From a virus (Duplodnaviria; Caudoviricetes), in the IMG/VR virus record IMGVR_UViG_3300028591_000070, positions 64,001 through 128,000 of that record: a stretch of 64,000 nt of DNA. One strand, 5' to 3'. A program made the position numbers and the translations under genes. Shown piece after piece: positions 8,405-32,338 of the stretch (position 1 is the first letter of the stretch; each line of letters opens with the position of its first letter). The notes beneath the pieces were generated by a model, which was not told where the DNA came from, made no database searches, and worked only from the letters and a program-made list of their open reading frames with translations.

Positions 8405-9022
8405 ATGAATATGAATGGACAAAATAGTTCGACAAAAGTAACCTTACTTACAGGTGGTATGTTTAGTGGTAAAACCAGACGTTTAGTAGATGAATTAGAA
8501 AAGAGAATTTTGGCACACAAAAGTGTATTGTATGTACATCCTTTTAAGGACACACGAGAGAATAAATCTCATCAATCTTTCGTTTCTAAGCATTTGGATG
8601 AACTTATTAGTGATAAGTTGGTTGACATCATTGAAGTAAATGATATTTCAGAAGTAACCAAATTTTTATCTGAAACAGATATCAATTATTCATCTATTTT
8701 TATAGATGAGTACTTTATGATTAAGTTTCAAAATATTGAAGACTTTTTGAATAAAGCAAATGAATTAGAAATTCCAGATATCTATCTAGCAGGTCTTATT
8801 TCAGATGCAAATTGTAAATTGTTTAAGGAAGCAGAAAATGTTTTACCTTATGCAGATGAGATTGTTAAAGCAAATGCAGTTTGTATGGAATGTGGCGCTC
8901 CTGCAAATTATTCCCACTTTATTGGAAACCACTTCAAAAGCGATGATATTAATGTAGATAATGGTTCTTCATATCGTTGTCTTTGTTGGAAGTGTTACGC
9001 CAAAGCCACAAATAGAGTCTAA
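8405..9022 (+). CDS. tdk: thymidine kinase
   Basis: GGMFSGKT P-loop, DTR, IFIDE, C-terminal CxxC...YRCLCWKCY zinc site. Confidence 0.92.
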   Translation: MNMNGQNSSTKVTLLTGGMFSGKTRRLVDELEKRILAHKSVLYVHPFKDTRENKSHQSFVSKHLDELISDKLVDIIEVNDISEVTKFLSETDINYSSIFIDEYFMIKFQNIEDFLNKANELEIPDIYLAGLISDANCKLFKEAENVLPYADEIVKANAVCMECGAPANYSHFIGNHFKSDDINVDNGSSYRCLCWKCYAKATNRV

Positions 9023-9023
9023 T

Positions 9024-9069
9024 TTGAAAATCCTCTTATATTTTAGTATATTCTATATAAGAGGTAAAT
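9024..9069 (+). promoter_or_regulatory. sigma70-type promoter plus RBS
   Basis: TTGAAA-N17-TATATT-CTATATAAGAGGTAAAT-ATG. Confidence 0.8.
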
Positions 9070-10488
9070 ATGGACAAGCAGAAGATTATTAACGAAGTTC
9101 TCATCCCACTTGAAGATGCCGGTTTTAAAGCATATTTCGTTGGTGGATGTGTTCGCGATGAGCTTTTAGGAAAAGATCCACATGATTATGATGTAGTTAC
9201 TAATGCTCGTCCAGATGATATTCACAGAATTTTCCCAAAAATTATTGATATTAAGTCTGAATCATTTGGTATTGTTGTAATCAATATTGATGGCGAAAAC
9301 ATTGAAATTGCTACTTTCCGTAAAGATAGAGAATGTGATGGTCGTCATGCAGACGTTACTTATGCAGATACTATTGTTGAAGATGCAGAACGTAGAGATT
9401 TTACAATCAATGCTCTTTATCAGGATAAGTATGGCAATATTTATGACCCTACTGGTTTAGGTGAAAATGATATTCAGTATGGATTTATCCGCTTTATTGG
9501 TTCTATGTATGACCGCTGTAAAGAAGATAATCTTCGTATTTTGAGATATTTCAGATTTGCTGCTACTCTTACCCGAAAGGATGGTGGTTTCTTCACTTTT
9601 GCAGAAGATATTGAAGAGATTAAAAATCTTATTGATGACCCCACTTTTATTTTATCTTTTAATCATAGAGTTAGTGGTGAAAGAGTTGGTAAAGAATTAC
9701 GAAAACTTATTTCTGGAAAGAATGCACCAAAGATTATAAATCTTATGTCAAATATTTCTATGAAAATGTTTGATAAGATTTTTCCAAAAGAGTTTTATGA
9801 CTTAGAAAGTCAGCCTACTTATTCAAAGTATCATACAACATCTAATAATCTTGCTCATTCATTAATTGTATTCCATAAAATGTGTGAACTTACTGATAGC
9901 TTTGAATTACGCACTGCTGCACTTTTCCATGATGTTGGAAAATCTGTTTGTCAGGATGATGTTGGCCATGCTTTGGACCATGAAATTGCTTCAGTTGAAA
10001 TCTGTGAGCCTTTTTTGAAAGAAAATTGGAAACTTACAAATCATGAACTCAAGTCAATTATGCATTATATTCGTTACCACATGGATATGCATAAAATTTC
10101 AGAAACAAAGCATCCAGAAAAGATTTGGAAATTTATGTATTCTCATGGGTTTGATGGACTTTTGAAATTACTTGAAGCTGATTGTATTGATGTTCCAGGT
10201 GACTATAATGACTATACAAAATTGGTAAGTCACCCACTCTTCGAGTTCTTTAAGAAAATAGAATATCCTAGTGCTTTTACTGGTCCAGAATTGATGGAAT
10301 TTGTTTCTTCAGGTATATTCTTAGATAAAGGAATTGAAGCTGCAAATGCAGCTTTTGCTCGTGAGCTTATTAAAGCTTATAAGCATGGAGTTACTGGAAA
10401 GGTTATTTCTAAAAAAGCAATATTAAAACAGGCTGCTGAAAGAGTTATTCAGCTCCGTAAAAATGAAGAGGTAAAGAAAGATGCTTAA
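9070..10488 (+). CDS. cca: CCA-adding tRNA nucleotidyltransferase with HD domain
   Basis: VGGCVRD...DYD, EIATFR, RRDFTINA, EDNLRILR, ERV motifs; H...ALFHDVGK HD domain. Confidence 0.92.
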   Translation: MDKQKIINEVLIPLEDAGFKAYFVGGCVRDELLGKDPHDYDVVTNARPDDIHRIFPKIIDIKSESFGIVVINIDGENIEIATFRKDRECDGRHADVTYADTIVEDAERRDFTINALYQDKYGNIYDPTGLGENDIQYGFIRFIGSMYDRCKEDNLRILRYFRFAATLTRKDGGFFTFAEDIEEIKNLIDDPTFILSFNHRVSGERVGKELRKLISGKNAPKIINLMSNISMKMFDKIFPKEFYDLESQPTYSKYHTTSNNLAHSLIVFHKMCELTDSFELRTAALFHDVGKSVCQDDVGHALDHEIASVEICEPFLKENWKLTNHELKSIMHYIRYHMDMHKISETKHPEKIWKFMYSHGFDGLLKLLEADCIDVPGDYNDYTKLVSHPLFEFFKKIEYPSAFTGPELMEFVSSGIFLDKGIEAANAAFARELIKAYKHGVTGKVISKKAILKQAAERVIQLRKNEEVKKDA

Positions 10489-11497
10489 AGTACTTGCAAC
10501 TTACAAGAATGGAAATCACAGAGTAATTATTGGTGATGATGGTACAAAGATTAAAGAAACATTCAATCCTGATGCCGACCATTTTACTTATGACTTCCCT
10601 GAAAACTTTGATATTCATATCAATAATCGCTGCAATGCAGGCTGTCCTTATTGTCATGAAGGTTCAACAAAAGATGGTGAAGTTCCATCTCTTATAGAGA
10701 TGATTTTCAAGAATAACAATTTTTCTACTGAAAAGAAAGATGGAAGACTTTATTACACTGGAGAAATGACTCCATTTTATAAGTCCCTTCATGCCGGCAC
10801 AGAGATGGCAATTGGTGGTGGTAACATTTTTGAGTCTAAGCCAGAAGAATTTGAAATCTTCCTTGCTGTAAATAAGGCAAAACATATTCTCTCAAATATT
10901 ACTATCAATCAAATCCATATTAAGCCAAACTTTGAAAAAATTAAAAAATGGGTTGATAATGGACTTGTACATGGCATTGGCATTTCTCTTGTAAACTCAA
11001 AAGATGAAGAGTTCTGGAAATGTATTGATCAGCTTGGAGAAAATGTTGTTATCCACACAATTGCAGGTATTTTGACTGAGAAAGATTTGCCATATCTTAA
11101 AGACCGTAAAGTTCTTATTCTCGGCTATAAACATCTTCGCCGTGGAAATGATTATTTCTCAGATGCTATTCAGAAGAATATTGATTGGTTGAAGGACAAC
11201 ATGAAAACAGTTTCTGAAACCGTTAAACTTATGTCTTTTGACTGTCTTGGAATTGAACAGCTTGAGCCTAAGGAAGTTTTGAACATCACAGATGACGAAT
11301 GGAATACTTTGTTCCAGGGTTCTGATACAGATGTAAAGGATGCTGATGGAAATGTTACATGTTCAACAATGTATATCGACCTTGTTGGTGGACCAAAGTG
11401 TGCTCGTATGTCAACTGCTGGTTTGGATAAGCGTTATCCTTTCAGCTATGATGAGCCAATTGAAGAAGTTTTCAAGCGTTCAACAAAAGACTGGTAA
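10481..11497 (+). CDS. radical SAM protein
   Basis: CNAGCPYCHE (CxxxCxxC) motif and AIGGGN glycine motif; overlaps the cca stop. Confidence 0.9.
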   Translation: MLKVLATYKNGNHRVIIGDDGTKIKETFNPDADHFTYDFPENFDIHINNRCNAGCPYCHEGSTKDGEVPSLIEMIFKNNNFSTEKKDGRLYYTGEMTPFYKSLHAGTEMAIGGGNIFESKPEEFEIFLAVNKAKHILSNITINQIHIKPNFEKIKKWVDNGLVHGIGISLVNSKDEEFWKCIDQLGENVVIHTIAGILTEKDLPYLKDRKVLILGYKHLRRGNDYFSDAIQKNIDWLKDNMKTVSETVKLMSFDCLGIEQLEPKEVLNITDDEWNTLFQGSDTDVKDADGNVTCSTMYIDLVGGPKCARMSTAGLDKRYPFSYDEPIEEVFKRSTKDW

Positions 11498-11545
11498 TTG
11501 ATTTTTCTGGCAAAATTTTGTATAATCTTATATAAGAGGTAATAT
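11498..11545 (+). promoter_or_regulatory. sigma70-type promoter plus RBS
   Basis: TTGATT-N17-TATAAT-CTTATATAAGAGGTAATAT-ATG. Confidence 0.8.
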
Positions 11546-12112
11546 ATGGATATTAGTGAAATTGATTTGCTTAGAAAATTTATAGAAGAAAAAAATCTTT
11601 CAAGTTTGTATCAAGAATGGCGCAAATCATTTGTTAAAAATTATGAAAATGTATCCGTAAAATTCTATTGTTTACATGGCAAATATGAATTTGAAATTAC
11701 AATTGCCAGAAAACAATTACCTTATTTCGTTGAATGGTCTGAGGAAATTGAGTCAGATTATCCTTTTAAGTCTCGTCTTGAAGTAGAATGGGAAAATGGA
11801 AAGGCTACCTACGAAAGATGGTCTGAAGTTTTCTTGACTGGTAAAGATGTTAAAGCAATTTTCTCAGCTATTGACCATAGTAAAGGAGAGAATGGTTCGA
11901 TTGCTATCTCTAATGGCTCAGTTGAATGGGAATGGACAGAATCTGATTATGGAGTTATTAGCGAATATACTAATGTGTCAGACTCCAAAGATGATGACTC
12001 AGAAATCTGTGGCAATGATTTTGTGCAAGAATGTCAAGATTGGGCATATATTACTAAGAGAAAAGACCCAAACTATAATGATGCTTATATTTGGAATATC
12101 GAGGATAAATAA
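11546..12112 (+). CDS. hypothetical protein (acidic)
   Basis: 188-aa ORF after promoter. Confidence 0.8.
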   Translation: MDISEIDLLRKFIEEKNLSSLYQEWRKSFVKNYENVSVKFYCLHGKYEFEITIARKQLPYFVEWSEEIESDYPFKSRLEVEWENGKATYERWSEVFLTGKDVKAIFSAIDHSKGENGSIAISNGSVEWEWTESDYGVISEYTNVSDSKDDDSEICGNDFVQECQDWAYITKRKDPNYNDAYIWNIEDK

Positions 12113-12393
12113 TGGAAGACAATGACTTTACTCCAATCGAAAAAGATATAATTAACTCCCTTAAGGCAGGTATCTCAACTAAAGAAGACCTTGAACGAGG
12201 TGTAGCTTATTATACAATGCTCTTTGAGCCAGTTTTACTTTCTGCAGAAAAAGCAGTGAAGCAATATACAAAAGTAATGAAAGAAGCAGCTGGTGATGGA
12301 GACTTAACAGAAGATATGATTGCTTACCAAGTAATTGGTCTTCTACAAGACGCTCTAGTTGATAGAATTATTAAAGGATCAAAGAATGGGTAG
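12112..12393 (+). CDS. hypothetical protein
   Basis: 93 aa, TAATG coupling. Confidence 0.75.
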   Translation: MEDNDFTPIEKDIINSLKAGISTKEDLERGVAYYTMLFEPVLLSAEKAVKQYTKVMKEAAGDGDLTEDMIAYQVIGLLQDALVDRIIKGSKNG

Positions 12394-12553
12394 GCTGGTA
12401 AGAATTCCAAGTTCTATTTGGATAAAAATGACAAAAGAACAGAAAGAACAGTATTATAAGCAACAGAGAAAAGAAAATATTCTTGTTGGTATTATTGTAA
12501 GCATTACGCTTATTGTGTCATTTACACTTTTATTTTTATGGGGGTTGAAATGA
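12386..12553 (+). CDS. small membrane protein
   Basis: start moved to ATG 12386 (AAGGA upstream); C-terminal TM helix. Confidence 0.65.
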   Translation: MGRLVRIPSSIWIKMTKEQKEQYYKQQRKENILVGIIVSITLIVSFTLLFLWGLK

Positions 12554-13191
12554 AAACAATTAGACCAGGAACATTTGAAACAAATTCTTCAAGCTGTCAC
12601 ACAATTACCCTTAAAGCAACTAAGAAACAGATTGATGAATTCAATGAAGGAAAGAGATGGTATTTTTATAACAGTAATCTTGGATGGAATGACCCTAAAA
12701 GAGAAGCTTTCTTGAATTTTGATGAGCTTTTTGAAGTATTAAATGATGCTGTAAAAAATACAGATGTTGTTGAAAAGACTTATTGCCATGACTATTGCTC
12801 AAGATTCAGCAATTTTGGAATTGATATTTGTGACCTTCCATGGTGGAAGGATGATGAAGTAACCAATAAAGATTATGACAGATTTAAAAAATATTTTGTT
12901 GACAATTTTGATAAGGATATGTTCAGATTTGCTATGGATGATGAATATGATAATCCTAAATATTTTTCAAAAATAATTCTTCGCTCTTTTATTTATTACA
13001 TTTTTGAAGAGTTGGGCTGCCCTATTATGAAGATTGAAAATCTCAGAAATACTTATTCAGAATGTTGCGATAATTCTCAAGTTTTTTGGACTACTTATGG
13101 CAGTAGAAAAACTGATAAGCTCGAGTTTTATAGTGATGGTTGGGCAGACGACCAGCTTATTGAAGTTAATATTGATATGAGAGATAATTAA
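12550..13191 (+). CDS. FETNSSS-motif protein, array member 1
   Basis: MKTIRPGTFETNSSSCH; start moved to 12550 (ATGA overlap). Confidence 0.85.
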   Translation: MKTIRPGTFETNSSSCHTITLKATKKQIDEFNEGKRWYFYNSNLGWNDPKREAFLNFDELFEVLNDAVKNTDVVEKTYCHDYCSRFSNFGIDICDLPWWKDDEVTNKDYDRFKKYFVDNFDKDMFRFAMDDEYDNPKYFSKIILRSFIYYIFEELGCPIMKIENLRNTYSECCDNSQVFWTTYGSRKTDKLEFYSDGWADDQLIEVNIDMRDN

Positions 13192-13194
13192 CTT

Positions 13195-13605
13195 ATGAAT
13201 ACAATTAGATATGATACTTTTGAAACAAATTCCTCAGCTTGTCATGTTTTAACTCTTATAAAAAAAGAAGAGTTACAAAAGATGTTTGAAGACCAATATG
13301 ATTCAGTAATTCATTTTCCAGACACAGGTGAATATCAAACTGATAATAAGTATGAAATAATGTCTTTAAAAGAAGCTTGGAAACTTTGGGAAAGTCATGT
13401 TGATGAATACAATGAACGATATAAGAATATCGATTTCCATGTTGACCATTATGAAAATGAATATAAATTCAAATCGGCTTTGGATAAAGGAGAACTTTCA
13501 CAAGATGAATTGTTTGGAAAGTTTATGAATTATTCACAATTAATGACTTATATTCCTCCATCACAAGATGCTAATGTAGATATTATGTGGTGGAATTATG
13601 ACTAA
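13195..13605 (+). CDS. FETNSSS-motif protein, array member 2
   Basis: MNTIRYDTFETNSSACH. Confidence 0.85.
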   Translation: MNTIRYDTFETNSSACHVLTLIKKEELQKMFEDQYDSVIHFPDTGEYQTDNKYEIMSLKEAWKLWESHVDEYNERYKNIDFHVDHYENEYKFKSALDKGELSQDELFGKFMNYSQLMTYIPPSQDANVDIMWWNYD

Positions 13606-13619
13606 AAGGAGAAGAAAAT

Positions 13620-14078
13620 ATGAAAACTATTAGATATGGTACCTTTGAGACAAACTCATCAAGTGAGCATTCAGTGTCTCTTTACAATGCAGATGAGATT
13701 AAAGATTTTAAAGAAGGTAGAAAATACTATGATACTTATTATGGATTTCGTTCAATTAAAAATTGGGAAGAAGATCTTAAAAAAACAAAGTATAACATAA
13801 CAGATGAGCAGCTTAAATTGATGTTTGATTGGCTTATTTCTTTTATTAAAGAGAATAAAGATGTAAGCGGTTATGAATTTGATGACTTTGAAGATGAATT
13901 TGATGAGTCATTTACTGAAGATATGATTGCTTTTATCAAAGAGATTATGGTTGACTCAGGTCGTCTCTGGATTTGGGATAACTGGGGATATGGTTATAGT
14001 GAGTCTGACATCGACCAAATTACAACACCTCATGGTGACGTAGTTTATGCTTTGTCATATTCTGGATATTGCGATTAA
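13620..14078 (+). CDS. FETNSSS-motif protein, array member 3
   Basis: MKTIRYGTFETNSSSEH; AAGGAG RBS. Confidence 0.85.
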   Translation: MKTIRYGTFETNSSSEHSVSLYNADEIKDFKEGRKYYDTYYGFRSIKNWEEDLKKTKYNITDEQLKLMFDWLISFIKENKDVSGYEFDDFEDEFDESFTEDMIAFIKEIMVDSGRLWIWDNWGYGYSESDIDQITTPHGDVVYALSYSGYCD

Positions 14079-14090
14079 AAAGGAGATTTT

Positions 14091-14576
14091 ATGAAAACTA
14101 TTCGATTAAATACTTTTGAGACAAATAGTTCATCTTGTCACTGCCTTGTAATTTGTGGTCAGAATAAGCTGAAAGAATTCAGAGAGCGCAAAGTTATTGC
14201 TTTGTCAGATGTAAGAGTTGATAGTGACTATGATGTAAGAGAAATCACCATTCCTGATGACTACTTTGTTTCTATTGAAGATGCTTTTAATAAGGTTATT
14301 GAGTATCGTGAAGCTAACAAAGATAGCGACAAATGGTCTGTAAAGCAGATTTTGAAATTGGAAAACTTTGATTTTGATAAATTCAAAGCCATCATTTTTG
14401 ATGAAGATGATGACATGGAATCTTATGACATGCTAGATGTTTTGGAAGATGCATTCAATGTGCCTGAAGTATTTATTTCTGGAAGCTATAAATCACCTTT
14501 GGATGCTCATGAAATAACCACACCAAAAGGTATTGAAGGTCCTATTTCAATTATCTCAACTGAAGTGGAGTGCTAA
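14091..14576 (+). CDS. FETNSSS-motif protein, array member 4
   Basis: MKTIRLNTFETNSSSCH; AAGGAG RBS. Confidence 0.85.
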   Translation: MKTIRLNTFETNSSSCHCLVICGQNKLKEFRERKVIALSDVRVDSDYDVREITIPDDYFVSIEDAFNKVIEYREANKDSDKWSVKQILKLENFDFDKFKAIIFDEDDDMESYDMLDVLEDAFNVPEVFISGSYKSPLDAHEITTPKGIEGPISIISTEVEC

Positions 14577-14578
14577 AT

Positions 14579-15097
14579 ATGAAAACAGTAAGATTTGGAA
14601 CATTCGAGACAAACAGTTCATCAGCTCATGTTGCTACCATTTGTGGTCAGAAAAAGTTGGAAGAATATAAAGCTCATAAGGCAATTTGTGTTTTTGATTT
14701 CTTTTACAGTGATGAAGAGAGTGGTGAAGTAAATGTTGTGCCTGATAAAGCTTTTAAATCATTTGAAGAAGTTTTAAGTGATATTAAAAAATGGTATGAA
14801 AATCCAGACATTGAAGATGGCAAAGATGAAAGTTATATGGAAATAGCCAAAAAGCTTCTTGATGGTGGATTTACTGCTAAAGACCTTGAAAATTGTCTTG
14901 TAAATGAAGGTTCATTTGGTGATATTGACAATTGGGAAATTCAAGAGCTTCTTGAAGAAGATGTTTATGAAGGAACTCGCATCCATGTATATGATCCTGA
15001 AGGAGAGAGTGAGCCTTTTTCAGCAGAAGAAAGCTTAGTTGGTTTAGCCGAAATTGAAGGTCCTATTGTATCAGTTTGCTCTGAGGTATGTTGCTAA
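14579..15097 (+). CDS. FETNSSS-motif protein, array member 5
   Basis: MKTVRFGTFETNSSSAH; start moved to 14579. Confidence 0.85.
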   Translation: MKTVRFGTFETNSSSAHVATICGQKKLEEYKAHKAICVFDFFYSDEESGEVNVVPDKAFKSFEEVLSDIKKWYENPDIEDGKDESYMEIAKKLLDGGFTAKDLENCLVNEGSFGDIDNWEIQELLEEDVYEGTRIHVYDPEGESEPFSAEESLVGLAEIEGPIVSVCSEVCC

Positions 15098-15098
15098 T

Positions 15099-15692
15099 AT
15101 GAAAACAATAAGAAGAAATACTTTTGAAACAAATAGCTCAAGTTGTCACTGTGTTACTATCATGAAACCTTCTGTTTATGAAGCTGTAAAAGAACAAAAT
15201 TCAGTAGTACACAATGTTTTTAATCATGTTGAAGAATATAGCGAAACTTCTGCAACTATCCACAGTTATGACTTGATTCCTATTAGCGAACTACATGAAG
15301 AATTTCTTCTTGAATATCCTAAGTGTGCTAATATTGAATATTTTAAGGATAACATGGAGTCATATTTTGAAGGAATGTGGGAAGCTTTTGAATCTCTTAT
15401 TCAAGATATCAATTTCTTTAAGAAACTGGTTTTCTTTGAAGAGAAAAAACCTACATTTAAGCTGTCAGAAGTTTATGATGGAAAAATCACCAGAGTTGAC
15501 TCTGAAGAAGATGATTTCAATAAAACTCACACTCCTGAGTGGATTATGGCCTGGATTTTTAGAGCAATTTGTTGTGACAGTAATATAAACTTTTTATCTT
15601 TTAATTTGGATTTTGAGGATGAAAATCTCTCTATTGAAGATTTTGAAAAAGAGGATGGAGTTTATAAAGCCGAGCATGATATTAGTTGCTAA
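15099..15692 (+). CDS. FETNSSS-motif protein, array member 6
   Basis: MKTIRRNTFETNSSSCH; start moved to 15099. Confidence 0.85.
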   Translation: MKTIRRNTFETNSSSCHCVTIMKPSVYEAVKEQNSVVHNVFNHVEEYSETSATIHSYDLIPISELHEEFLLEYPKCANIEYFKDNMESYFEGMWEAFESLIQDINFFKKLVFFEEKKPTFKLSEVYDGKITRVDSEEDDFNKTHTPEWIMAWIFRAICCDSNINFLSFNLDFEDENLSIEDFEKEDGVYKAEHDISC

Positions 15693-15701
15693 GGAGAAAA
15701 A

Positions 15702-16394
15702 ATGAGAACAGTTCGTAGAAATGTATTTGAAACAAACTCATCATCAGTTCACTGTGTAACAATTCTTTCTGATAAAGAATACCAAAATATTAAGAATGGT
15801 AAAGCAGTTCTCGATTACCATGATTATGTGGAAATAACACCACAGTTTATTCGAGAAAAAATTGCAGAAGATAAAAAATATTCTGAGTCTTCAATTGAAG
15901 AATATGAAAAGAACATTAAAAAGTTTGAAAAGCTTATTGATGTAGATACTGGTGACTGGTCTAAAGAAGATAAGAGAACTATTGTTGGATGGACTTGGGA
16001 ACGTCTTTCAGGTTCCGAACTTAAGATTAAGCTTCGTGAATATCTTGAACGAGCTAAAGAACGCATTCAAGAAAATAAAGATTCCATAACAGAAGCAGAC
16101 TCTCTTGATCCTGAAAAGATGGTAAAACTTCTTGAAAGAATGATTCCAGATCTTGAAAGACTCAAGGAAGAATATAATGATTATGATGATGATGAAGAAG
16201 ACGACGATGAAGATATTCTTTCTGCCGATGACTATGGATGCTCTGAAGAAGAGTTTAATTGGGCTGTTGAGTTCTTAAATGATAAAGATAATATCGATAC
16301 TTACGGTAGTGAATATGATGAATCTAGCTATGATTCGCGCACTATTGATGGTGTAACTGTTCATGTACTCTCATATTCAGGACGCGATGGCTGA
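15702..16394 (+). CDS. FETNSSS-motif protein, array member 7
   Basis: MRTVRRNVFETNSSSVH; AAGGAG RBS. Confidence 0.85.
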   Translation: MRTVRRNVFETNSSSVHCVTILSDKEYQNIKNGKAVLDYHDYVEITPQFIREKIAEDKKYSESSIEEYEKNIKKFEKLIDVDTGDWSKEDKRTIVGWTWERLSGSELKIKLREYLERAKERIQENKDSITEADSLDPEKMVKLLERMIPDLERLKEEYNDYDDDEEDDDEDILSADDYGCSEEEFNWAVEFLNDKDNIDTYGSEYDESSYDSRTIDGVTVHVLSYSGRDG

Positions 16395-17552: not shown

Positions 17553-19376
17553 ATGGATAAAGAATCTGTATTTAACGAATATAATAAACTTTTCCCAGTA
17601 CCGGCTCCCAAAAATCCGGCATCTTATGATGAGGTAAAAGGAATTCTTAATAGAACTCCACATAAAATGCTTACCTTTTCAAAGCAGCCTGGTGATGTGC
17701 CTGCTTATGCCACTCGTTCATCAAGTTTTGGAACGACTGGTATTTATAATATTTATGTAAATCCAGAATATGAACAGTCTTATGATGGTTTGCTTCTCCA
17801 TGAAATGGGACATATCATCTTTGGTCATCTTCAGTCTAATGCATTTAATGAAAAAACTTTTGAAATGAAACTTAAGTTTGCTTGGGCACGCATTAGAAAA
17901 CTTATTATGGTTGGAGATGATGTTAAACTTTCTGAAAAAGAAATCCAAGACATTTATCTTAATAAAGTTAAGCAGATTATGCTCAACTATGCTATGGATT
18001 ATGAAGTAAACTCAAAATTGTTTACTCCTGAAGAATGGGCAGAACAAGCTCAGAAGTTTGAATATGACTGGATGAAAATCCATTTCGAAGATGAAAACTT
18101 TGATGAGCAGTCTTATGAAGAAACTTTTAATGTTAAGAAAGATGACCCTACTAAAAAGATTGTAAGTGCTCTTTGGCCTGAAGATGTAGGTTTTCCATTA
18201 AAATTACAGTTTACGCAGTATATTGATTTGATGATTCGCGACCCAGAAAAGTTCTTTGAAAAACTTCTTCTGTTAAATCCACCTCCAATGAGTGGAAATG
18301 GTGGTGATGACCAGGATGATGGCTCACAAGGTCAGAATGGAAAATCTAAAGGTAAGGGTGGCGGAAACTCTAAGAAAAATAAAAATCAGCAGAGTGGCCA
18401 AGGAAATGGTGGTGGCCAGTCAGACTCTGAAGATGAAAAATCTGATGAACAGTCTGGTGGAAATGGAAATGGCAAAGAAGATAAATCATCTAAAAGTAAA
18501 GATGGTAATGGCTCATCTGGCGGAAAGCTGAGTCTTGCTGATATTGATCGTCTTGCTAAAGAAGCTGAAGATATGGATGAAGAAGCCATGAAAAAAGTTA
18601 CTGAAGCCGCAGAAAAAGCTGAAGCAGGTGAAGGTGGCGATGAAGATGGCTTAGGTAGCAGCGGAGATGAGGACGGAGATAATTCTTCTGGAAATTATTC
18701 ACCTTTTGGAACTGGTGCAAAACGCAGTGCAATCATTGATGTAAAAGATACTCATGCTCTTGAAAATGAATTGCTTAAAGCAGTTTATAACAAAACTGTA
18801 ATGAATACTCGCCAGGACCCAGTTTATTATTATAATCGTAAAAAATATAACTCAAATGTTATGATTAGCCGCTCTAGAGAAGAACAGCTTTGGAGACCTG
18901 GAAATATTGTACTTTTGGTTGACTGTTCTGGTTCTATCAATGACACAGCAATTGGAGTAATGATTAAATGTGTTCGTCGTATCGCTAAGAAATGTGGACC
19001 AAAATCTCGTATTGTTTGGTGGGACACTGAACTTGAAGGTGACTATCCACTTAATGCTGATAAAGGTCCAAAAGGTTATGGTGGAACTCGTATTTCAAAA
19101 GGTATTAAGTATGTTCGCAGCCATTATCTTCGTCAGTCTAATGATAAACTTGTAATTATCTCAGATTATGCAGACTCGCTTACAATGTGGTATGATGAAG
19201 CTAAGAAAATTAAGAATGATGTTGTTGGACTTTGTTGGCTTTATACCGAAGATAAAACAGAAACACCTAGACAATATCTTTCTGATTGGTGGAGCTATGG
19301 TAGTAGAGGAGAGGAAAATAAATCTTATGATAAATTCCTTAAAAAGATACCAACTACCTTAGTTAATATTTCCTAA
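17553..19376 (+). CDS. HEXXH metallopeptidase-like plus vWA domain protein (DUF2201-like architecture)
   Basis: LLLHEMGH...NYAMDYEVN, G/S/D-rich linker, LLVDCSGS MIDAS, GGT, IISD. Confidence 0.85.
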   Translation: MDKESVFNEYNKLFPVPAPKNPASYDEVKGILNRTPHKMLTFSKQPGDVPAYATRSSSFGTTGIYNIYVNPEYEQSYDGLLLHEMGHIIFGHLQSNAFNEKTFEMKLKFAWARIRKLIMVGDDVKLSEKEIQDIYLNKVKQIMLNYAMDYEVNSKLFTPEEWAEQAQKFEYDWMKIHFEDENFDEQSYEETFNVKKDDPTKKIVSALWPEDVGFPLKLQFTQYIDLMIRDPEKFFEKLLLLNPPPMSGNGGDDQDDGSQGQNGKSKGKGGGNSKKNKNQQSGQGNGGGQSDSEDEKSDEQSGGNGNGKEDKSSKSKDGNGSSGGKLSLADIDRLAKEAEDMDEEAMKKVTEAAEKAEAGEGGDEDGLGSSGDEDGDNSSGNYSPFGTGAKRSAIIDVKDTHALENELLKAVYNKTVMNTRQDPVYYYNRKKYNSNVMISRSREEQLWRPGNIVLLVDCSGSINDTAIGVMIKCVRRIAKKCGPKSRIVWWDTELEGDYPLNADKGPKGYGGTRISKGIKYVRSHYLRQSNDKLVIISDYADSLTMWYDEAKKIKNDVVGLCWLYTEDKTETPRQYLSDWWSYGSRGEENKSYDKFLKKIPTTLVNIS

Positions 19377-19433: not shown

Positions 19434-19871
19434 ATGGTAACCCTCAAACCTACTAAGCGTGATTTTATTTTTGATAGGTTCTTTGAAAAAAAGAATAATT
19501 ATGAATATTTCTACTATGAGGAAGACCCTACAGTAGAAAATGATATTGAATTGTTTGGCTATTCTAAGTTTGCTTGTGATGCAGCTTATGAAGATGGCGA
19601 AGTTCAATGGAACTATATTGTTAAAAATAATAAAATTTTGGGTATTACTGCTATTAAAAAAGATGGTGATAATCTAAAAATTAAGTTTTTGGAAATAAAT
19701 TCAAAACTTAGAGGAAGAGGTTTTGGAGCTGAAACTATTGAATATTTCAAAGCTCTAAAAGATAATAAAAAGTACAAAGCTATTCTTTTATATCCTAAAG
19801 ATGAAGAAGTTGCCGAGCATTTTTACAAACCCCTTGGATTCAAAGAGAATGGTGGAGAACTGATTTACTAA
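19434..19871 (+). CDS. GNAT-family acetyltransferase
   Basis: LEINSKLRGRGFG acetyl-CoA motif A and FYKPLGF motif B. Confidence 0.85.
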   Translation: MVTLKPTKRDFIFDRFFEKKNNYEYFYYEEDPTVENDIELFGYSKFACDAAYEDGEVQWNYIVKNNKILGITAIKKDGDNLKIKFLEINSKLRGRGFGAETIEYFKALKDNKKYKAILLYPKDEEVAEHFYKPLGFKENGGELIY

Positions 19872-19883
19872 GGAGTTTGATTT

Positions 19884-20078
19884 ATGGCTGATAAGGTTTA
19901 TATTGTTTGGGAAAGATCTGAATCTGAAGATACTTATGGTGACACAATTGTGGATATCTATAAGGACAAAATAAAAGCTCAAGAAGTGGCAGATAATTTA
20001 CGCCATAAGATGATGAATGATCCTGAAAATGATGATGACTCATTAGACTATTTTGTTGAAGGTCATGAGGTAAAATAA
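19884..20078 (+). CDS. small hypothetical protein
   Basis: 64 aa, AAGGAG RBS; KVYIV...IVDIY...KA pattern common in small phage proteins. Confidence 0.75.
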   Translation: MADKVYIVWERSESEDTYGDTIVDIYKDKIKAQEVADNLRHKMMNDPENDDDSLDYFVEGHEVK

Positions 20079-20090
20079 ACTAATTATCCT
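20079..20090 (+). promoter_or_regulatory. ACTAATT-type element
   Basis: ACTAATTATCCT directly before ATG. Confidence 0.7.
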
Positions 20091-20441
20091 ATGGATAATA
20101 AAGAAATTTTTAGAGAAAAAGTTTATAGAACTCAACAAAAAAGATTGGTTGAGAGTATAAATGAGTCACTTATAAGCGAAATTAAAGAAATTTATCGCAA
20201 TTATGTAAGTGAGATTGGTTCTACCATCACTGAAAATCTTGTTACAATAAACTTTATTATTTCTGGAGCTGGAACTTCATATGAAGAAGTTGAAGGTGAT
20301 ATGGACAATATTGCAGATGCTTATGGAATGACAGTTTCAGATTTTAGTTGCTTCTGTGAAGAAGGACAAGATATTGAATGTGATGAATACCTAAGAACAG
20401 GACAACCTGTAGAGTTTTGTGTTTCATTTGAATACCTTTAA
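20091..20441 (+). CDS. hypothetical protein
   Basis: 116 aa with LVESINES motif. Confidence 0.75.
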   Translation: MDNKEIFREKVYRTQQKRLVESINESLISEIKEIYRNYVSEIGSTITENLVTINFIISGAGTSYEEVEGDMDNIADAYGMTVSDFSCFCEEGQDIECDEYLRTGQPVEFCVSFEYL

Positions 20442-20446
20442 AAAAG

Positions 20447-20470
20447 AGGACCTCAATAAGAGGTCCTTTC
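20447..20470 (+). terminator. intrinsic terminator
   Basis: AGGACCTC-AATAA-GAGGTCCT-TTC. Confidence 0.75.
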
Positions 20471-20479
20471 TTATTTAAG

Positions 20480-20491
20480 ACTAATTAAAGT
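20480..20491 (+). promoter_or_regulatory. ACTAATT-type element
   Basis: ACTAATTAAAGT directly before ATG. Confidence 0.7.
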
Positions 20492-21049
20492 ATGAAACAT
20501 TTGATTAAACGTGGAACATCAATTCCTACAGAAGCAGATTTGGAAGACTATCAATTAGGCTGGTGTACTGGAAATAAAAAGCTTTATATTAAAGATGATG
20601 GTGTTATTAGACAACTGAGTTCAACTGTAGTTTTAGAAGATAACACTTTTGTAGAGTCTAAACAACAGGCTATTCAGAATAATGGTACTTATGTTTTTTC
20701 TGCTGTGTCTGATAATTTATTATTTACAATCACTTTTAACTTTAGTAATAATATTCTAAACTTTAAGATTACTCCAACAGGAAATAGAAGATTTACTATT
20801 CAAAATGCTATAACTCATCAAGAATGGATGACAACTAATGGATATAGAAGTCTTTCTAATTTTACAACTCTTGAAACTGATTCAATTGACTTTAATGTAG
20901 GCTCATTTATCAATGCCGTAGATAAAAACTTTTATTTTGAAATGTTTTTTACAATCAATGGATATGACTATAAAATCGATTTTAGATCTGCTGAAGAAAG
21001 CTCAACATCAGTAAGCGCTATTTGTACTATGAGTAAAACAGTAGCATAA
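20492..21049 (+). CDS. putative tail fibre-associated protein
   Basis: N-terminal IKRGTSIP...L...QLGW...KLYIKD resembles the anchoring motif of fibre/Mtd-type proteins. Confidence 0.5.
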   Translation: MKHLIKRGTSIPTEADLEDYQLGWCTGNKKLYIKDDGVIRQLSSTVVLEDNTFVESKQQAIQNNGTYVFSAVSDNLLFTITFNFSNNILNFKITPTGNRRFTIQNAITHQEWMTTNGYRSLSNFTTLETDSIDFNVGSFINAVDKNFYFEMFFTINGYDYKIDFRSAEESSTSVSAICTMSKTVA

Positions 21050-21059
21050 GGAGATTATT

Positions 21060-22160
21060 ATGGGAAAAGCAATAGTACCAAAAAGTAATAGTATTCATCC
21101 TAAAAAAGAAGGCTTATTTATATACAATCATGCCTTATTTATGAATGAAAAAGACTCTAGTTATAAAATTACAAATATTATTCATAAAGCAAAACCTCTC
21201 AGTAAATTATTTACAGCTATACAAGAAAAAATCGCAATTACGGGAACACAGTCACTTTCAGAAAGTGCCAGATTATTAGCAAGCGGCGTTACTCCTGATG
21301 GTATTACTCAAAGATATCCAATTATTCAACCTAGAGTTGGATATTTAAGAATATGGAGAAATTATGAAGGTTCAGATCTTTATTTTCAATTCTTAGATAC
21401 TTATAATAATAACACAGTTGGAAGACCTACTGACCTTATAGCTCATACAACTACTGATAAATCTCAAGGAGCTGGGTGGAATGGGGACCTTAATTTTATC
21501 TTAAACTTTTATTCTATTGATATGAGTTTAGGTTATATTCAAGATTTATCTAAAGGATATTGGAATAATAATAATGGATGGACACAAGGTTCATTAGTAT
21601 ATGATGGTGATGACTTAAATCTTTATTATAAAGATATAACAGTTTCATGGTGTAGAATTTTTGCTCCTACGCCTTCTGATCCACCTTGGACTTGGGTGTG
21701 CTTAGATGATGGCTATACTGGAAGAAACTGGGTACCTATTTTAAGTGGTACAAATGCTCAATGGACTGAATCTCAGATGGCAGAAAGATTTGCCAATAGA
21801 TATTATGATTGTTATAGAAATATAGATCAAGTAATAAATCAAGGTGTATATGCTGATGGTATTACTCAAATAAGTCTAGGTATTGGCGATATAAAATTTA
21901 CTCTTGAAAGAAGCGATACAGATTATACTATATCTTTTACTGGAAGTAGTCTTTCTTCTAAAGAAATATCCTTAAATTGTAAACTTATAGCTGGTGATAC
22001 TTTTAAAATTTTTAATCCATTAAAAGGAACAAGTGATATTCATTTTAGTGGAAATTCTAAAATAGAGATTATTTCTAGAGGAAGCTATACAACTAAACAA
22101 GAGATTTTTATCAACGATACCAATAAACAATTAATGCTTATAACAGAAAAACTATTCTAA
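21060..22160 (+). CDS. hypothetical protein, possible receptor-binding/structural
   Basis: 366 aa, beta-rich with W/G/N; AAGGAG RBS. Confidence 0.7.
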   Translation: MGKAIVPKSNSIHPKKEGLFIYNHALFMNEKDSSYKITNIIHKAKPLSKLFTAIQEKIAITGTQSLSESARLLASGVTPDGITQRYPIIQPRVGYLRIWRNYEGSDLYFQFLDTYNNNTVGRPTDLIAHTTTDKSQGAGWNGDLNFILNFYSIDMSLGYIQDLSKGYWNNNNGWTQGSLVYDGDDLNLYYKDITVSWCRIFAPTPSDPPWTWVCLDDGYTGRNWVPILSGTNAQWTESQMAERFANRYYDCYRNIDQVINQGVYADGITQISLGIGDIKFTLERSDTDYTISFTGSSLSSKEISLNCKLIAGDTFKIFNPLKGTSDIHFSGNSKIEIISRGSYTTKQEIFINDTNKQLMLITEKLF

Positions 22161-22589
22161 TACCTTAAAGAATTCTTCAATAATTTTTTCTTTTGAGAAA
22201 TTAGAGTAATATTGGCCACCTATCTCAACAATAATAGGTTTATCATTTATTTTATGTGACTTAAGACTGTTGAGGTAGGTGTCTCTTGCTCTTGAAGAGA
22301 TTCCCATCCACACTGCTACTTTTTCGGGACTCATTTCAAATTTACCTTCACCATTTATACAATGTTCAACAAATTCTTTATATTCCCTTATAGTATCATT
22401 TGTGGCTTTTCCAAAGATATATCTTTTAGGAGCTTGTTCTTCTTGAACAGATTTATGAACTCGCTTTTCCTCAGGAGAAGTGCCTCGCAATTGAGACCTT
22501 AATTGTTTATTTTCTGTTTTTAATTGGACAATTTTAGTTACTAATTGCCCAATTACCTTTGAGATAAGGGCTTCTTCCTGTGGAGTCAT
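22152..22589 (-). CDS. coiled-coil plus possible HTH protein
   Basis: N-terminal heptads; SPEKVAVWMGISSRARDTYL HTH-like segment. Confidence 0.6.
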   Translation of the reverse strand: MTPQEEALISKVIGQLVTKIVQLKTENKQLRSQLRGTSPEEKRVHKSVQEEQAPKRYIFGKATNDTIREYKEFVEHCINGEGKFEMSPEKVAVWMGISSRARDTYLNSLKSHKINDKPIIVEIGGQYYSNFSKEKIIEEFFKVLE

Positions 22590-22774
22590 TAGTCCTTAAG
22601 TACCTCCTGAGCTTTTGCAAGAATATCGGCAAGATTTCCTGCGCTCTCAGTGTTCTGATTTTTAAGATTACGATTTGTTTCCATTAACTGAGCATTTTGT
22701 GCTTTGAGCTCAACAATTTTGTTTACCAACTTTTCGATTACATTTACTGTTTCATTAATTACATTTTCATCCAT
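22589..22774 (-). CDS. small coiled-coil protein
   Basis: 61 aa, heptad repeat, TAATG coupling at both ends. Confidence 0.7.
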   Translation of the reverse strand: MDENVINETVNVIEKLVNKIVELKAQNAQLMETNRNLKNQNTESAGNLADILAKAQEVLKD

Positions 22775-24300
22775 TATTTTAATATCTCCTTTGCTTTATT
22801 TATTGCATTTTTAAGGGCTGTAAAGTCCATATTAACTGATCCATTATTTTGTTTTTTAGTAGAATATTTATTTATTGTATCGTCAACAGATCCTTCTAGA
22901 TGTTCAACCGCTTTTTTACACTTGAACTCAAACTCATTTTGGTTGAATACACCATCTCCATAATAGTCATCATATACTTCAAGTAAAAATCTTTCTTTTT
23001 CCTCTTTATCTTTCCAGAATAAATATTCAGAAACTTGTCTTAAGAGTTTTCTATCAATTGCTGCTTTTGGTGTAAAATATGAGATTAAAAACTCTTGGCC
23101 AATACCTATAATAGCAATAATAATAATCATTAAAGTTTCAGCAATACCAGACCCAGAAGCATCATCAGATTTTGTTTTTGATGTAATTGCCTCAGAAATG
23201 AGCATAAAAATCTGTGAACTTTCACCTATATCAGAATTGTTTTTCCATTCTTCACGAAGACCTTGCAAAATACCAATTACTTGAGTAATATCAATAGGCT
23301 CACCATTTTCATCAAGAAATGAAACAGGCTTTCCTTCAATTACAAGTCCATTTTCATATGAGTTGGGATGCTTATAGAGATTTTCAAGAGCTAAAATAGT
23401 ATTTTTGATTTCTTCATTATTTTCATTAGCAAGGGCATCATAAGCCGCAATAGAGTCTTTATCTATTTCTGTTTTCTTTGCTTCTTGCTGGAATTTTGTA
23501 ACAAGCTCAGACCTAGAAATATAGTCAATATTATTTCCAATAAAAGTAGGGGCCATTTTCTTAAATGGCTTTCTTTTAGCTTCAATATAGCTAGTTTTTT
23601 CCTCTTCAGTTTCAAGAGCTAAATATTCTTCATTCTCATAAATATCTGCAAGAATATTTTGCCATTTTTCAATATTTGGCCAATATCTATCAGCTTCTCT
23701 TTCAGCCGTCTGTTTTGAATTTGCAGTTCCTTCAAGATTACCACGTGTAAGAGTACGTTTATCATTACTATCAGATTTTTTCTGATCTTTGAGAGCTTTT
23801 AATTCATCAATAGAAATTGTAATGTTTGTAGCATTTCTTTCCGCATCTTTCATAGCAGAGCCAATTGAATTTACAGAAAGTGATAAAGCTGTAATTATAG
23901 AAAGAATAATTGTAAACTTATGCCAAATATGAGCTTTAATAATAGGTTTATTTAAGTTTTTAGCCCAAGAAAAATTTTTAGCATAGAGACGAGCTTGTAA
24001 TTCTTTTAGCATACCAAGCTTCATAGCCAACCAGAATTTAGCTGAAATAAAACCAATAGATATTACTGTATATAATATTGCTGCTGCCATTGGAATTGTT
24101 CCAATATGAAGCAAAGATTTAGATAATCCACTGAAAAAAGCAACATCAATTATTCCGGAAGCTATAGATAAGATAATACAAGTAACAACTGAACCTTTAA
24201 CTAAAACTGTTGAGCTTGAAAGACGTTCTTGATTTTTATTAAAAATAATTTTAAAATTTATACCATTTCTTTTTTTAGTATTTTTACTTTTATTATGCAT
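22774..24300 (-). CDS. multi-pass membrane protein with coiled-coil soluble domain
   Basis: three N-terminal and one C-proximal hydrophobic helices. Confidence 0.8.
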   Translation of the reverse strand: MHNKSKNTKKRNGINFKIIFNKNQERLSSSTVLVKGSVVTCIILSIASGIIDVAFFSGLSKSLLHIGTIPMAAAILYTVISIGFISAKFWLAMKLGMLKELQARLYAKNFSWAKNLNKPIIKAHIWHKFTIILSIITALSLSVNSIGSAMKDAERNATNITISIDELKALKDQKKSDSNDKRTLTRGNLEGTANSKQTAEREADRYWPNIEKWQNILADIYENEEYLALETEEEKTSYIEAKRKPFKKMAPTFIGNNIDYISRSELVTKFQQEAKKTEIDKDSIAAYDALANENNEEIKNTILALENLYKHPNSYENGLVIEGKPVSFLDENGEPIDITQVIGILQGLREEWKNNSDIGESSQIFMLISEAITSKTKSDDASGSGIAETLMIIIIAIIGIGQEFLISYFTPKAAIDRKLLRQVSEYLFWKDKEEKERFLLEVYDDYYGDGVFNQNEFEFKCKKAVEHLEGSVDDTINKYSTKKQNNGSVNMDFTALKNAINKAKEILK

Positions 24301-24322
24301 AGTAATTAAATATTAACTGAAA

Positions 24323-24341
24323 AGGCAGCTTAAAGCTGCCT
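24323..24341 (-). terminator. intrinsic terminator
   Basis: AGGCAGCT-TAA-AGCTGCCT with T-run on the minus strand. Confidence 0.75.
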
Positions 24342-24348
24342 CTTAAAA

Positions 24349-24489
24349 TTACAAACGGATTGCGTTTGAATTATTAATTTGCTCTTTATCCTTATAAAGC
24401 TTCTGAATTGCTTCAGTTTCAGCTTTTTCCAACTTTTCAGCTTCTTTTTTAGCTTTGATTTCTGCAATCTTTTTTGCATCTGTTGCCAT
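24349..24489 (-). CDS. small Lys/Glu-rich protein (46 aa, not in ORF track)
   Basis: MATDAKKIAEIKAKKEAEKLEKAETEAIQKLYKDKEQINNSNAIRL; GGAGG upstream, TAATG coupling. Confidence 0.7.
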   Translation of the reverse strand: MATDAKKIAEIKAKKEAEKLEKAETEAIQKLYKDKEQINNSNAIRL

Positions 24490-24869
24490 TAGTTATTTCC
24501 TCCATTATTTTGGTTATTTTGCTGTTGTTGATTGTTTCCACCCATTCCACTAGCTTGATTTAAGCTATTAGTAGAAACCTCCATATTTCCTTTGTTATTA
24601 CCATTGCCCATAGATTTTTTAATATTTTCTACAAGCTGTTCACCAAACTTCTCTAAAGTAGTTTGAAAACTTTTTAGGATTTCATCTTTAGTATTTTTTA
24701 GTGCTGCTTCAAAAGCTTGCTCTAATGTTTTTTCATCTATTGGAGCTTGTTGCTGCACCTGCTGTTGTGGAGCTGCTTGCTGTTGAGGTTGCACATTTTG
24801 TTGCTGAACATTTCCATCTTCTTGGAGTTTTTCAGCTACATGTAAAGCATATAATACATCTCTTTCCAT
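24489..24869 (-). CDS. Gln/Asn-rich hypothetical protein
   Basis: 126 aa; ACTAATTTATTT before ATG. Confidence 0.75.
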   Translation of the reverse strand: MERDVLYALHVAEKLQEDGNVQQQNVQPQQQAAPQQQVQQQAPIDEKTLEQAFEAALKNTKDEILKSFQTTLEKFGEQLVENIKKSMGNGNNKGNMEVSTNSLNQASGMGGNNQQQQNNQNNGGNN

Positions 24870-24880
24870 AAATAAATTAG

Positions 24881-25450
24881 TTAATACCCAATAGCAGTTC
24901 TTCTCTTTCCCATCTCATAAATAGTTGTTACCATTTCGGCAGGCAAAGCTACTGTTGGGATGGTACATAAGGCTTTTTGCATAATCATTTTAAGGCCACC
25001 AAAGTCACCTACGAGTTCTTTTACTTGTAAAGCAACTATAATTGGGTCGGTAATATCTTCATCAACATAAATTCTGAAAATATAATCATCAACATCTAAA
25101 GGATAATTCCAAGGAACTTGAACAGTATAAGATGCTTCTTGTTTACCTTCTTCATGTGCTTCAATAGGAGATGTCATTTCCCATTTCTTTGTTTCACTAT
25201 TTAATAAAATTCTTCTGAATGGGATATTTACTTGTGCAGGAAATACAGCTCTAATAACATCTATTGATTTAATAGAAGCAAGCATGTCATCACCTCTATA
25301 GTCTCTTTGCATTTTACATAAGATACAATCAATAGGTGATGAAACATTTCTGAGGTTTACGTTATCAATTACTTTTCTTTTTAAATTATCTTGTTTTTGA
25401 GCAAGTCTTGATTGAAAAGTACTTATTCCTAAATCTAAATAATCTGCCAT
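24881..25450 (-). CDS. hypothetical protein, probably structural
   Basis: 189 aa, TAATG-coupled to the upstream gene. Confidence 0.75.
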   Translation of the reverse strand: MADYLDLGISTFQSRLAQKQDNLKRKVIDNVNLRNVSSPIDCILCKMQRDYRGDDMLASIKSIDVIRAVFPAQVNIPFRRILLNSETKKWEMTSPIEAHEEGKQEASYTVQVPWNYPLDVDDYIFRIYVDEDITDPIIVALQVKELVGDFGGLKMIMQKALCTIPTVALPAEMVTTIYEMGKRRTAIGY

Positions 25451-27552: not shown

Positions 27553-27570
27553 GTATAAATTAGTAAATAA

Positions 27571-27596
27571 AAAAGGTGGCTTAATAGCCACCTTTT
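27571..27596 (-). terminator. intrinsic terminator
   Basis: AAAAGGTGGCT-TAAT-AGCCACCTTTT. Confidence 0.85.
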
Positions 27597-27599
27597 ATT

Positions 27600-29522: not shown

Positions 29523-29535
29523 TTATATATCTCCT

Positions 29536-30546: not shown

Positions 30547-30576
30547 AAGATAATTAGTTCTCCACTATTTATAAAT

Positions 30577-31101: not shown

Positions 31102-31140
31102 AAATAAATTAGTTAATATTTACAATAAGAGGAAAATAGA

Positions 31141-32306: not shown

Positions 32307-32311
32307 AAAAT

Positions 32312-32333
32312 AAGCCGCTCAATTGAGCGGCTT
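32312..32333. terminator. bidirectional intrinsic terminator
   Basis: perfect palindrome AAGCCGCTCAATTGAGCGGCTT between convergent genes. Confidence 0.85.
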
Positions 32334-32338
32334 TATTA

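Follow-up and report, generated by a model that had tools for sequence, protein, structure and literature searches.

A radical SAM enzyme and its N-terminally tagged partner proteins: a candidate protein-maturation system of phages and gut bacteria

The enzyme gene and the tagged gene array

The window analysed here (64,000 nucleotides; bases 64,001–128,000 of the 385,934-bp single-contig virus record IMGVR_UViG_3300028591_000070, which carries a terminal repeat) holds a gene for a radical S-adenosylmethionine (SAM) enzyme and, downstream on the same strand, seven consecutive genes whose products share one N-terminal motif, hereafter the tag. Most of the runs that hold this stretch are metagenomes from animal guts, among them sheep and bovine ones, and the source is therefore a ruminant-gut jumbo phage. 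We consider it probable that the enzyme is a dedicated radical SAM maturase that modifies the tagged proteins (its clients), the two together forming a two-component protein-maturation system. The features of the locus are listed below in window coordinates; tagged proteins were called as open reading frames (ORFs) that bear the tag.

10481..11497, + strand: radical SAM gene, 338 aa; ORF with CxxxCxxC, PHROG 16999 clade
11498..11526, + strand: sigma-70-like promoter match directly 3' of the radical SAM stop codon; consensus match only
11546..12553, + strand: three intervening ORFs of 188, 93 and 55 aa, from the ORF list
12550..13191, + strand: tagged protein 1, 213 aa
13195..13605, + strand: tagged protein 2, 136 aa, third Ser of the tag replaced by Ala
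13620..14078, + strand: tagged protein 3, 152 aa, GYDG body family, partner in the complex model
14091..14576, + strand: tagged protein 4, 161 aa, body homologous to that of protein 5 (E 3e-6)
14579..15097, + strand: tagged protein 5, 172 aa
15099..15692, + strand: tagged protein 6, 197 aa
15702..16394, + strand: tagged protein 7, 230 aa, GYDG body family, long acidic helical insertion

A preliminary description of the window, made from its letters, had reported seven consecutive same-strand ORFs with a common N-terminal motif, strongly acidic products, and motif serines written in both codon families. The sequence confirms each of these: the ORFs follow one another at gaps of 1–14 nt over 12550–16394, Asp and Glu make up 19–27% of the products, and the first and third tag serines are encoded by both TCN and AGY codons within the array, the third being Ala in copy 2. 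The tag comprises 17 residues, M-[KNR]-T-[IV]-R-x3-F-E-T-N-S-S-[SA]-x-H, at a fixed offset from the start, with M1, T3, R5, F9, E10, T11, N12, S13, S14 and H17 invariant in the seven copies. The upstream arrangement was also as described, with the CxxxCxxC gene about 1 kb away on the same strand (1053 nt from its end to the start of the array), a promoter and three small genes in between, and no terminator-like site on the + strand between 11497 and 12550. The promoter-like site reads TTGATT-17-TATAAT (10/12 match to consensus), and such sites are overall no commoner than in shuffles (41 vs 44.5). The intervening ORFs, the third of which (55 aa) has a hydrophobic C-terminal stretch, do not recur beside the enzyme elsewhere and are probably not part of the system. 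Two RNA runs gave scattered short contigs over the array; contigs cannot show transcription.

A profile hidden Markov model (HMM) of the tag found exactly eight matches in the whole 386-kb genome (E 1e-10 to 1e-13) with the next at E 1.2, and the motif is therefore not chance. The eighth tagged gene (genome 382,349–382,966; 205 aa, DNDN body family) lies ~78 kb round the circle from the enzyme, which suggests that the enzyme acts in trans, and none of the other CxxxCxxC proteins of the genome belongs to this enzyme clade. When the set was widened to 173 dereplicated tagged genes, all three tag serines were found in both TCN and AGY form, and from this free codon use we conclude that selection acts on the protein. 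The same variation led us to reject a DNA or RNA repeat as the source of the motif. We likewise rejected a codon-locked middle Ser as the mark of the reactive residue: this Ser is TCA in all eight genome copies, yet AGY in 71 of the 173 genes. In a profile search free of the exact string, R5, E10, N12, S13 and S14 were essentially invariant, while position 9 was F, W or Y, position 11 T or S, position 15 S, T or A, and position 17 His. The clients matched nothing meaningful among the families of Pfam, NCBIfam and PADLOC.

Enzyme and tagged genes across phages and gut bacteria

The link between enzyme and tag proposed in the preliminary description is supported by co-occurrence in both directions, by gene fusions and by a predicted complex with the tag in the enzyme barrel. 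Among loci fetched by the enzyme, 132 of 146 have a tagged gene within 10 kb (63 of 75 when the enzymes are grouped at 70% identity), with one to 10 tagged genes per locus. Enzyme and tagged gene are co-oriented in 269 of 269 cases, with a median gap of 13.5 nt and 103 gaps within 100 nt. No other neighbour recurs in the dereplicated enzyme loci, be it a protease, a transporter or a metabolic gene. Fourteen enzyme loci had no tagged gene within 10 kb, and eight of these 14 have a clear one elsewhere in the incomplete record. In the reverse direction, the enzyme was found inside 63 of 80 viral stretches picked by the tag; in the remaining tag-selected viral records it lies farther off in 13 of 16, and the three misses are fragments 8–16% complete. 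On GTDB contigs, the enzyme stood in the same stretch (up to 8 kb) with 30 of 49 genuine tags, as opposed to none of 34 chance pattern matches. Tag proteins that commonly occur without the radical SAM gene, one part of the outcome that the preliminary description had named as fatal to the idea, were looked for, and this pattern was not seen.

Three independent fusions place a tagged domain N-terminal to the enzyme (P0212, P0226 and P0334); these are plain table-11 ORFs found on two, one and six contigs, respectively. We looked for long proteins that join the tag to other domains and found none, which is weak evidence. A further single-contig ORF of 762 aa (P0255, L391:4001-6289) holds the enzyme, an internal tagged domain with E-T-N-S-S-G-T-H and a segment that is, we presume, HicB-like. 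On one rumen contig, a second, different radical SAM gene (L343:2775-3800) stands within a ten-gene tagged array.

The arrangement is found in known phages, such as Lak-B6, where four tagged genes directly follow the enzyme, and the cultured cyanophage Ma-LMM01, where the enzyme (gp128) and a tagged protein (gp130) are encoded two genes apart; neither gp128 nor gp130 is mentioned in the text of the Ma-LMM01 transcriptome paper. The system is not confined to phages, as the preliminary description had framed it, since it is also present in gut bacteria. In Christensenellales-type gut bacteria it forms a translationally coupled two-gene cassette that occupies many chromosomal positions among housekeeping genes, and behaves like a mobile accessory module. 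Clients of the gut-bacterial cassettes in GTDB (L099–L143) belong to a Cys-rich family, and the insertion sites lie near tuf, smpB, leuS and cysS.

The preliminary description had also pictured a constant tag with a variable payload. The tag is indeed common to all and the bodies carry variable insertions, but the bodies recur as a few families with conserved C-termini rather than as arbitrary cargo. With the tag and first strand removed, the bodies still clustered. Proteins 3 and 7 fall in a family of ~200 sequences ending in GYDG; the eighth copy falls, as do the fusion domains, in a DNDN/KGN family marked by a conserved YIDH motif; a further family is bacterial and Cys-rich, and there are smaller families as well. 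Protein 4 pairs with protein 5, protein 1 has just one relative, and proteins 2 and 6 each stand alone. One client family corresponds to PHROG 28997 (Ma-LMM01 gp130). Clients across loci are folded proteins of 95–320 aa, nearly all of which end in a strand and a few polar residues. As the bodies fall into families and end alike, they are old, selected domains with large variable insertions. Among orthologues the tag is more conserved than the body (0.91 vs 0.73). Comparison of the main body families by hhalign mostly gave no significant match, and a common fold for all is suggested by their shared architecture only. The model of protein 3 (predicted local distance difference test, pLDDT, 88.7) has a flexible stretch at residues 1–16, a first strand that starts at His17, and a terminal beta-hairpin. 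In fold searches this client matched neither a solved nor a viral structure (Foldseek, best E 1.0 and 0.07; VIA, best Z 3.7), which does not prove a new fold; its Atlas neighbours are unnamed viral clusters.

Predicted complex and proposed chemistry

The enzyme is, by a CxxxCxxC motif set on a predicted partial TIM barrel and by its fold matches, a member of the radical SAM superfamily. The motif cysteines (C51, C55 and C58) are invariant across 269 relatives, to which the conservation figures below also refer, while the match to PF04055 (E 4.6e-5) falls under the gathering cut-off. Its AlphaFold2 model (pLDDT 91.6) shows three N-terminal strands (4–10, 13–18 and 23–27), the partial barrel and a twitch-like hairpin. 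The strands form a sheet (residues 4–27) that resembles a recognition element (RRE) of enzymes acting on RiPPs (peptides synthesised by ribosomes and modified after translation), with the three strands only and none of the three helices that an RRE domain also has; an RRE/PqqD HMM gave no match to the enzyme. The top structural match was SuiB (Z 17.4, root-mean-square deviation (rmsd) 4.2, 290 residues aligned, model residues 1–338) and the second SkfB (Z 16.9, rmsd 4.0, 273 aligned), and both alignments span the N-terminal sheet, unlike those to the next matches, viperin (Z 15.3, rmsd 3.0, 226 aligned), EpeE and the anaerobic sulfatase-maturating enzyme anSME (Z 14.6), which begin near residue 26–39.

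The preliminary description was right that the enzyme has no full SPASM Cys pattern, as no Cys is conserved outside the motif (C255 in 12% and C294 in 20% of relatives). We considered C255 as an EpeE-like hydrogen-atom donor and rejected it as a family feature, the position being Asn in 86% of relatives. By contrast with these cysteines, D44, E108, T141, G167, S169, H192, L212, L214, K217, D254, D300 and S311 are 99–100% conserved. The enzyme matches PHROG 16999 (E 9e-24), and its clade is large, with 756 representatives (50% identity, E below 1e-30). Insertion of inteins is a typical mark of strong sequence constraint, and several relatives carry LAGLIDADG inteins (P0194, P0254 and P0329, with P0219, P0249, P0267 and P0322 judged by length); in P0254 and P0329 the intein begins directly after the third motif Cys, and P0329 appears to hold two.

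We modelled the enzyme with protein 3, SAM and a 4Fe-4S cluster in three runs and three controls. The complex scored 0.86 (0.86, 0.86 and 0.84) against 0.00 for the best of the controls, the runs agreed in at least 54% of contacts, and partner pLDDT was at least 65; the mark is reached by 58 of 80 solved complexes and two of 110 mismatched pairs, counts that are only roughly valid for this job. The model thus supports binding of the tag to the enzyme. In its most confident contacts, tag residues 2–5 pair with enzyme strand 22–27, the third of the sheet, while residues 9–14 are threaded into the barrel with F9 against N139 and G165. The tag up to residue 14 is set against N42, D44, E108, A110, T141, G167, N188, V190, H192, K210, L212, L214, S252, D254 and T296, and conservation is higher at the contact residues than at the others (0.69 vs 0.51, p 1.5e-5). 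Because the contacted residues match the layer just under SAM in MoaA-type barrels, which we take to comprise D44, A110, T141, G167, H192 and L214, we infer by this analogy that T11–S14 would lie at the reaction site. Leader peptides are known to bind beta3 of RRE domains (PMC12710340, PMC6231123), and the first element of SkfB and SuiB is an RRE, with a three-stranded sheet under the barrel (PMC6231123).

A second tag type helps to define the reacting segment. We fetched sister loci by the tag R-x-G-F-V-S-N-S-S-S and found that the neighbouring radical SAM enzymes are homologous to ours (E 1e-10 to 1e-16, hhalign 96.7%). They keep D44, A110, N139, T141, S169, H192, K217, D254 and Y298, but have Ala instead of K210 and Gln instead of E108 where their tag has Val for Glu. 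The sister clade also keeps twitch/SPASM cysteines at three equivalent positions and a C-terminal CxxC, all lost here. The C-termini of its clients bear the same signatures (GGYDG, DNDNH), and one body family is common to both tags. In a quick tree each tag type has its own enzyme clade, and the sister relation of the two clades is not settled by this tree. Because the core common to both tags is aromatic-x-[ST]-N-S-S, His17 does not appear to be a universal target, and the likely reacting segment narrows accordingly in sequence terms. The preliminary description had taken NSSS-x-H as the modified site; the modelled contacts and the common core make the Thr-Asn-Ser-Ser segment the likelier target, rather than His17, which starts the first strand of the client and is not among the confident enzyme contacts (tag residues 1–14).

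Putting these observations together, we propose the following course. One radical SAM enzyme would serve all tagged proteins of a genome (eight here, up to 10 per locus elsewhere). In the model, (i) the flexible tag residues 2–5 would add a strand to the third strand (22–27) of the RRE-like sheet, which has no helices, in the way that a RiPP leader binds to an RRE domain, and (ii) F9 would dock at the barrel bottom (N139, G165) while E10-T11-N12-S13-S14 climb a wide channel lined by small residues towards SAM, K210 probably pairing with E10. We infer further that (iii) the 5'-deoxyadenosyl radical would take a hydrogen from a residue in T11–S14, most likely a Ser, that acid/base or positioning roles would fall to D44, H192 and D254, none of which varies in this clade or its sister, that no auxiliary cluster would be needed, and that (iv) the modified tag would be kept beside His17 and the conserved C-terminal strand, completing the functional site of the client and perhaps switching on small, fast-diverging effectors in phage–host conflict. 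As for the product, a Ser oxidised to formylglycine or a related carbonyl is a tentative first choice. A side-chain-to-backbone ether or aromatic crosslink within F9–S14 might be formed instead, as might Ser dehydration or a radical backbone cleavage that removes the first 10–13 residues, each of which we regard as somewhat doubtful; epimerisation or some other change seems rather unlikely.

Several points weigh against a maturase acting on the tag. Everything beyond co-occurrence is prediction, including the modification itself, and most oxidative radical SAM enzymes that act on peptides use auxiliary clusters, which are absent from this clade. Six of the 14 incomplete records mentioned above hold no tagged gene at all, and some loci in bacterial metagenome-assembled genomes have the enzyme without a tagged gene within 10 kb. 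In the window itself, three genes and 1 kb separate the enzyme from the array, and the gene that it overlaps is a CCA-adding-enzyme-like one. The complex model may in part echo solved RRE–leader complexes; it was run with our own alignments and with ligands, which is outside the calibration, and it gave no coordinates for the atom facing SAM. Nor is the conservation of contact residues an independent test, since barrel interiors are conserved in any enzyme. The weakest link is the role in conflict, to which the many fast-diverging, small, acidic paralogues per phage and the mobile bacterial cassette point. It is only as a possibility, and a doubtful one, that we suggest a widespread, virus-centred system of post-translational tagging: a minimal radical SAM enzyme, with no auxiliary cluster and just the wing of an RRE, would turn a portable 14-residue Ser-rich tag at the N-terminus into a new cofactor or reactive group, derived from the protein, that arms a novel-fold superfamily of effectors in phage–host conflict.

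Alternative readings, known systems and genome setting

The alternative that survives best, while in our view unlikely, is that the tag is a binding motif only, the clients being regulators, adaptors or specificity subunits of an enzyme that acts on a small molecule, a nucleotide or a host protein which they deliver or gate. The fusions and co-occurrence would suit an obligate partner as well as a substrate, the conserved polar motifs of the bodies could bind a ligand, and viperin, among the top structural matches, works without auxiliary clusters. However, the modelled tag fills the substrate channel, so that a second substrate would hardly fit, T/S-N-S-S does not vary in either of two enzyme clades, as would be expected of a reacting segment, and no metabolic gene recurs nearby. 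The viperin models (NF038283 and PADLOC pVip) also do not match the window enzyme, whose fold likeness to viperin is at superfamily level.

PFL-AE and NrdG place radicals on glycyl-radical enzymes, and an activase of this kind, putting a catalytic protein radical on the tag and making the clients small radical enzymes or spare-part cofactors, would agree with the lack of an auxiliary cluster (as in activases), with the folded nature of the clients and with the label ‘organic radical activating enzyme’ that JGI gives to some relatives. We think it improbable, as there is no conserved Gly among the tag residues that go into the barrel (positions 9–14), PFL-AE is a weak sequence match (E 0.2) outside the top folds, and one phage with the system infects an oxygenic cyanobacterium, in which a stable protein radical would not survive. 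More improbable still is a RiPP-like scheme in which the tag is the product, excised as a short modified peptide from a disposable carrier. The modelled RRE-type recognition, the structural likeness to SuiB and SkfB and the tag being better conserved than the body would fit this scheme, but the bodies are well folded, old families with conserved C-termini, no protease or transporter recurs, and it would be odd for a single peptide to need eight different carriers. Finally, the enzyme could belong with the overlapping CCA-adding-enzyme-like gene in tRNA or nucleotide modification and the array be an unrelated paralogue expansion, as the 8-nt overlap with this nucleotidyltransferase gene and the promoter-like site between enzyme and array would allow; this is largely refuted by co-occurrence and fusions, as tagged genes recur beside the enzyme and the nucleotidyltransferase does not, and the other CxxxCxxC enzymes of the genome all fall outside the clade, leaving it barely credible.

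A maturase acting on the tag would have its nearest counterparts in the RRE-bearing radical SAM maturases of RiPPs (SkfB, 6EFN; SuiB, 5V1T; CteB, 5WGG; TqqB), which it resembles in its best fold matches (SuiB and SkfB), in the sheet below the barrel, in its position beside its substrates and in that the N-terminus of the substrate is predicted to join beta3 as an added strand. It differs from them in having the RRE sheet (or ‘wing’) only, no auxiliary-cluster Cys and ~10% identity, in holding recognition strand and reacting segment within 14 residues, and in its folded 95–320-aa substrates, often many per enzyme, with no protease or transporter. Another counterpart is anSME/AtsB (PDB 4K36; fold Z 14.6), likewise a radical SAM enzyme acting on a short Ser motif of a full-length protein, an action that is predicted here. 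The tag is F-E-T-N-S-S-S-x-H rather than C/S-x-P/A-x-R, SPASM clusters are lacking, the clients match no solved fold, and scans of the window with family libraries gave no match to sulfatase families. AtsB/anSME converts Ser to formylglycine, and TqqB forms an ether between Thr and the adjacent Gln (PMC10114670).

The HXS antiphage system (HxsA–D) is a bacterial defence with two radical SAM enzymes, HxsD and a secreted effector with His-x-Ser repeats, in which HxsB/C bring about N-terminal processing and a +8 Da change (PMC13128918). The likeness would lie in a protein effector of phage–host conflict that a radical SAM enzyme matures at a Ser/His motif; here, in contrast, there are one enzyme and an N-terminal S-x-H tag, no signal peptide and no His-x-Ser repeats, the system is mostly phage-encoded, and the HxsB and HxsC models (TIGR03977 and TIGR03978) gave no match. 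The aromatic-x-hydroxyl spacing of the tag (F/W/Y-E-T; F-V-S in the sister) recalls triceptide cyclophane synthases (XyeB, GrrM, FxsB) and is a lead only. These are SPASM enzymes that act on short precursors with an Omega-x-x crosslink motif, whereas our model sets the tag aromatic at the barrel bottom. PHROG 16999 and 28997, which include Ma-LMM01 gp128 (‘Fe-S oxidoreductase’) and gp130, are the same enzyme and client families, for which neither a function nor a link has been described.

We found no relevant paper on the motif or on a phage radical SAM enzyme with it, and no description of a phage-encoded protein-modifying radical SAM enzyme with its own client array; subscription journals lay mostly outside the search, which is thus not proof of novelty. 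To our knowledge, few radical SAM enzymes modify folded proteins (anSME, glycyl-radical activases, HxsB/C and some others). What we describe is a real and widespread enzyme-plus-tagged-client system, apparently not described before, which, if the models hold, would work like an RRE-guided RiPP maturase or anSME yet has no auxiliary cluster, short precursor or sulfatase motif. Members of the clade occur in Lak megaphages, in phages of rumen and gut, in gut bacteria and in Ma-LMM01, a cultured cyanophage, so that two genes in one construct would suffice for a direct test of the claim. Were the modification confirmed, hypothetical genes that are common in phages would gain a function, and peptide chemistry would be seen to proceed with a pared-down RRE and no auxiliary cluster; the short, portable tag might then serve as a transplantable handle for site-specific protein chemistry and engineering.

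Around the locus, a thymidine kinase gene and the poly(A) polymerase/CCA-adding-HD gene (window 8405–10488) lie 5' of the enzyme, and it is the stop of the latter that overlaps the enzyme start by 8 nt. In a related strain (run X5, bovine gut), ~1046 and 1200 further bases stand at the two ends of the enzyme gene (window 10479–10536 and 11481–11535) and are possibly mobile endonuclease genes or introns. Beyond the array, a protein of 607 aa is encoded at window 17553–19376; it has an HExxH motif, a linker rich in Gly, Asp, Ser and Lys, and a weak match to vWA. Elsewhere in the genome, a cluster unrelated to the enzyme clade (19859–33564) holds six CxxxCxxC radical SAM genes followed by two genes for long Cys-repeat proteins (589 and 522 aa), and nine tandem paralogous radical SAM genes (275–291 aa) in alternating orientations occupy 238731–246372.

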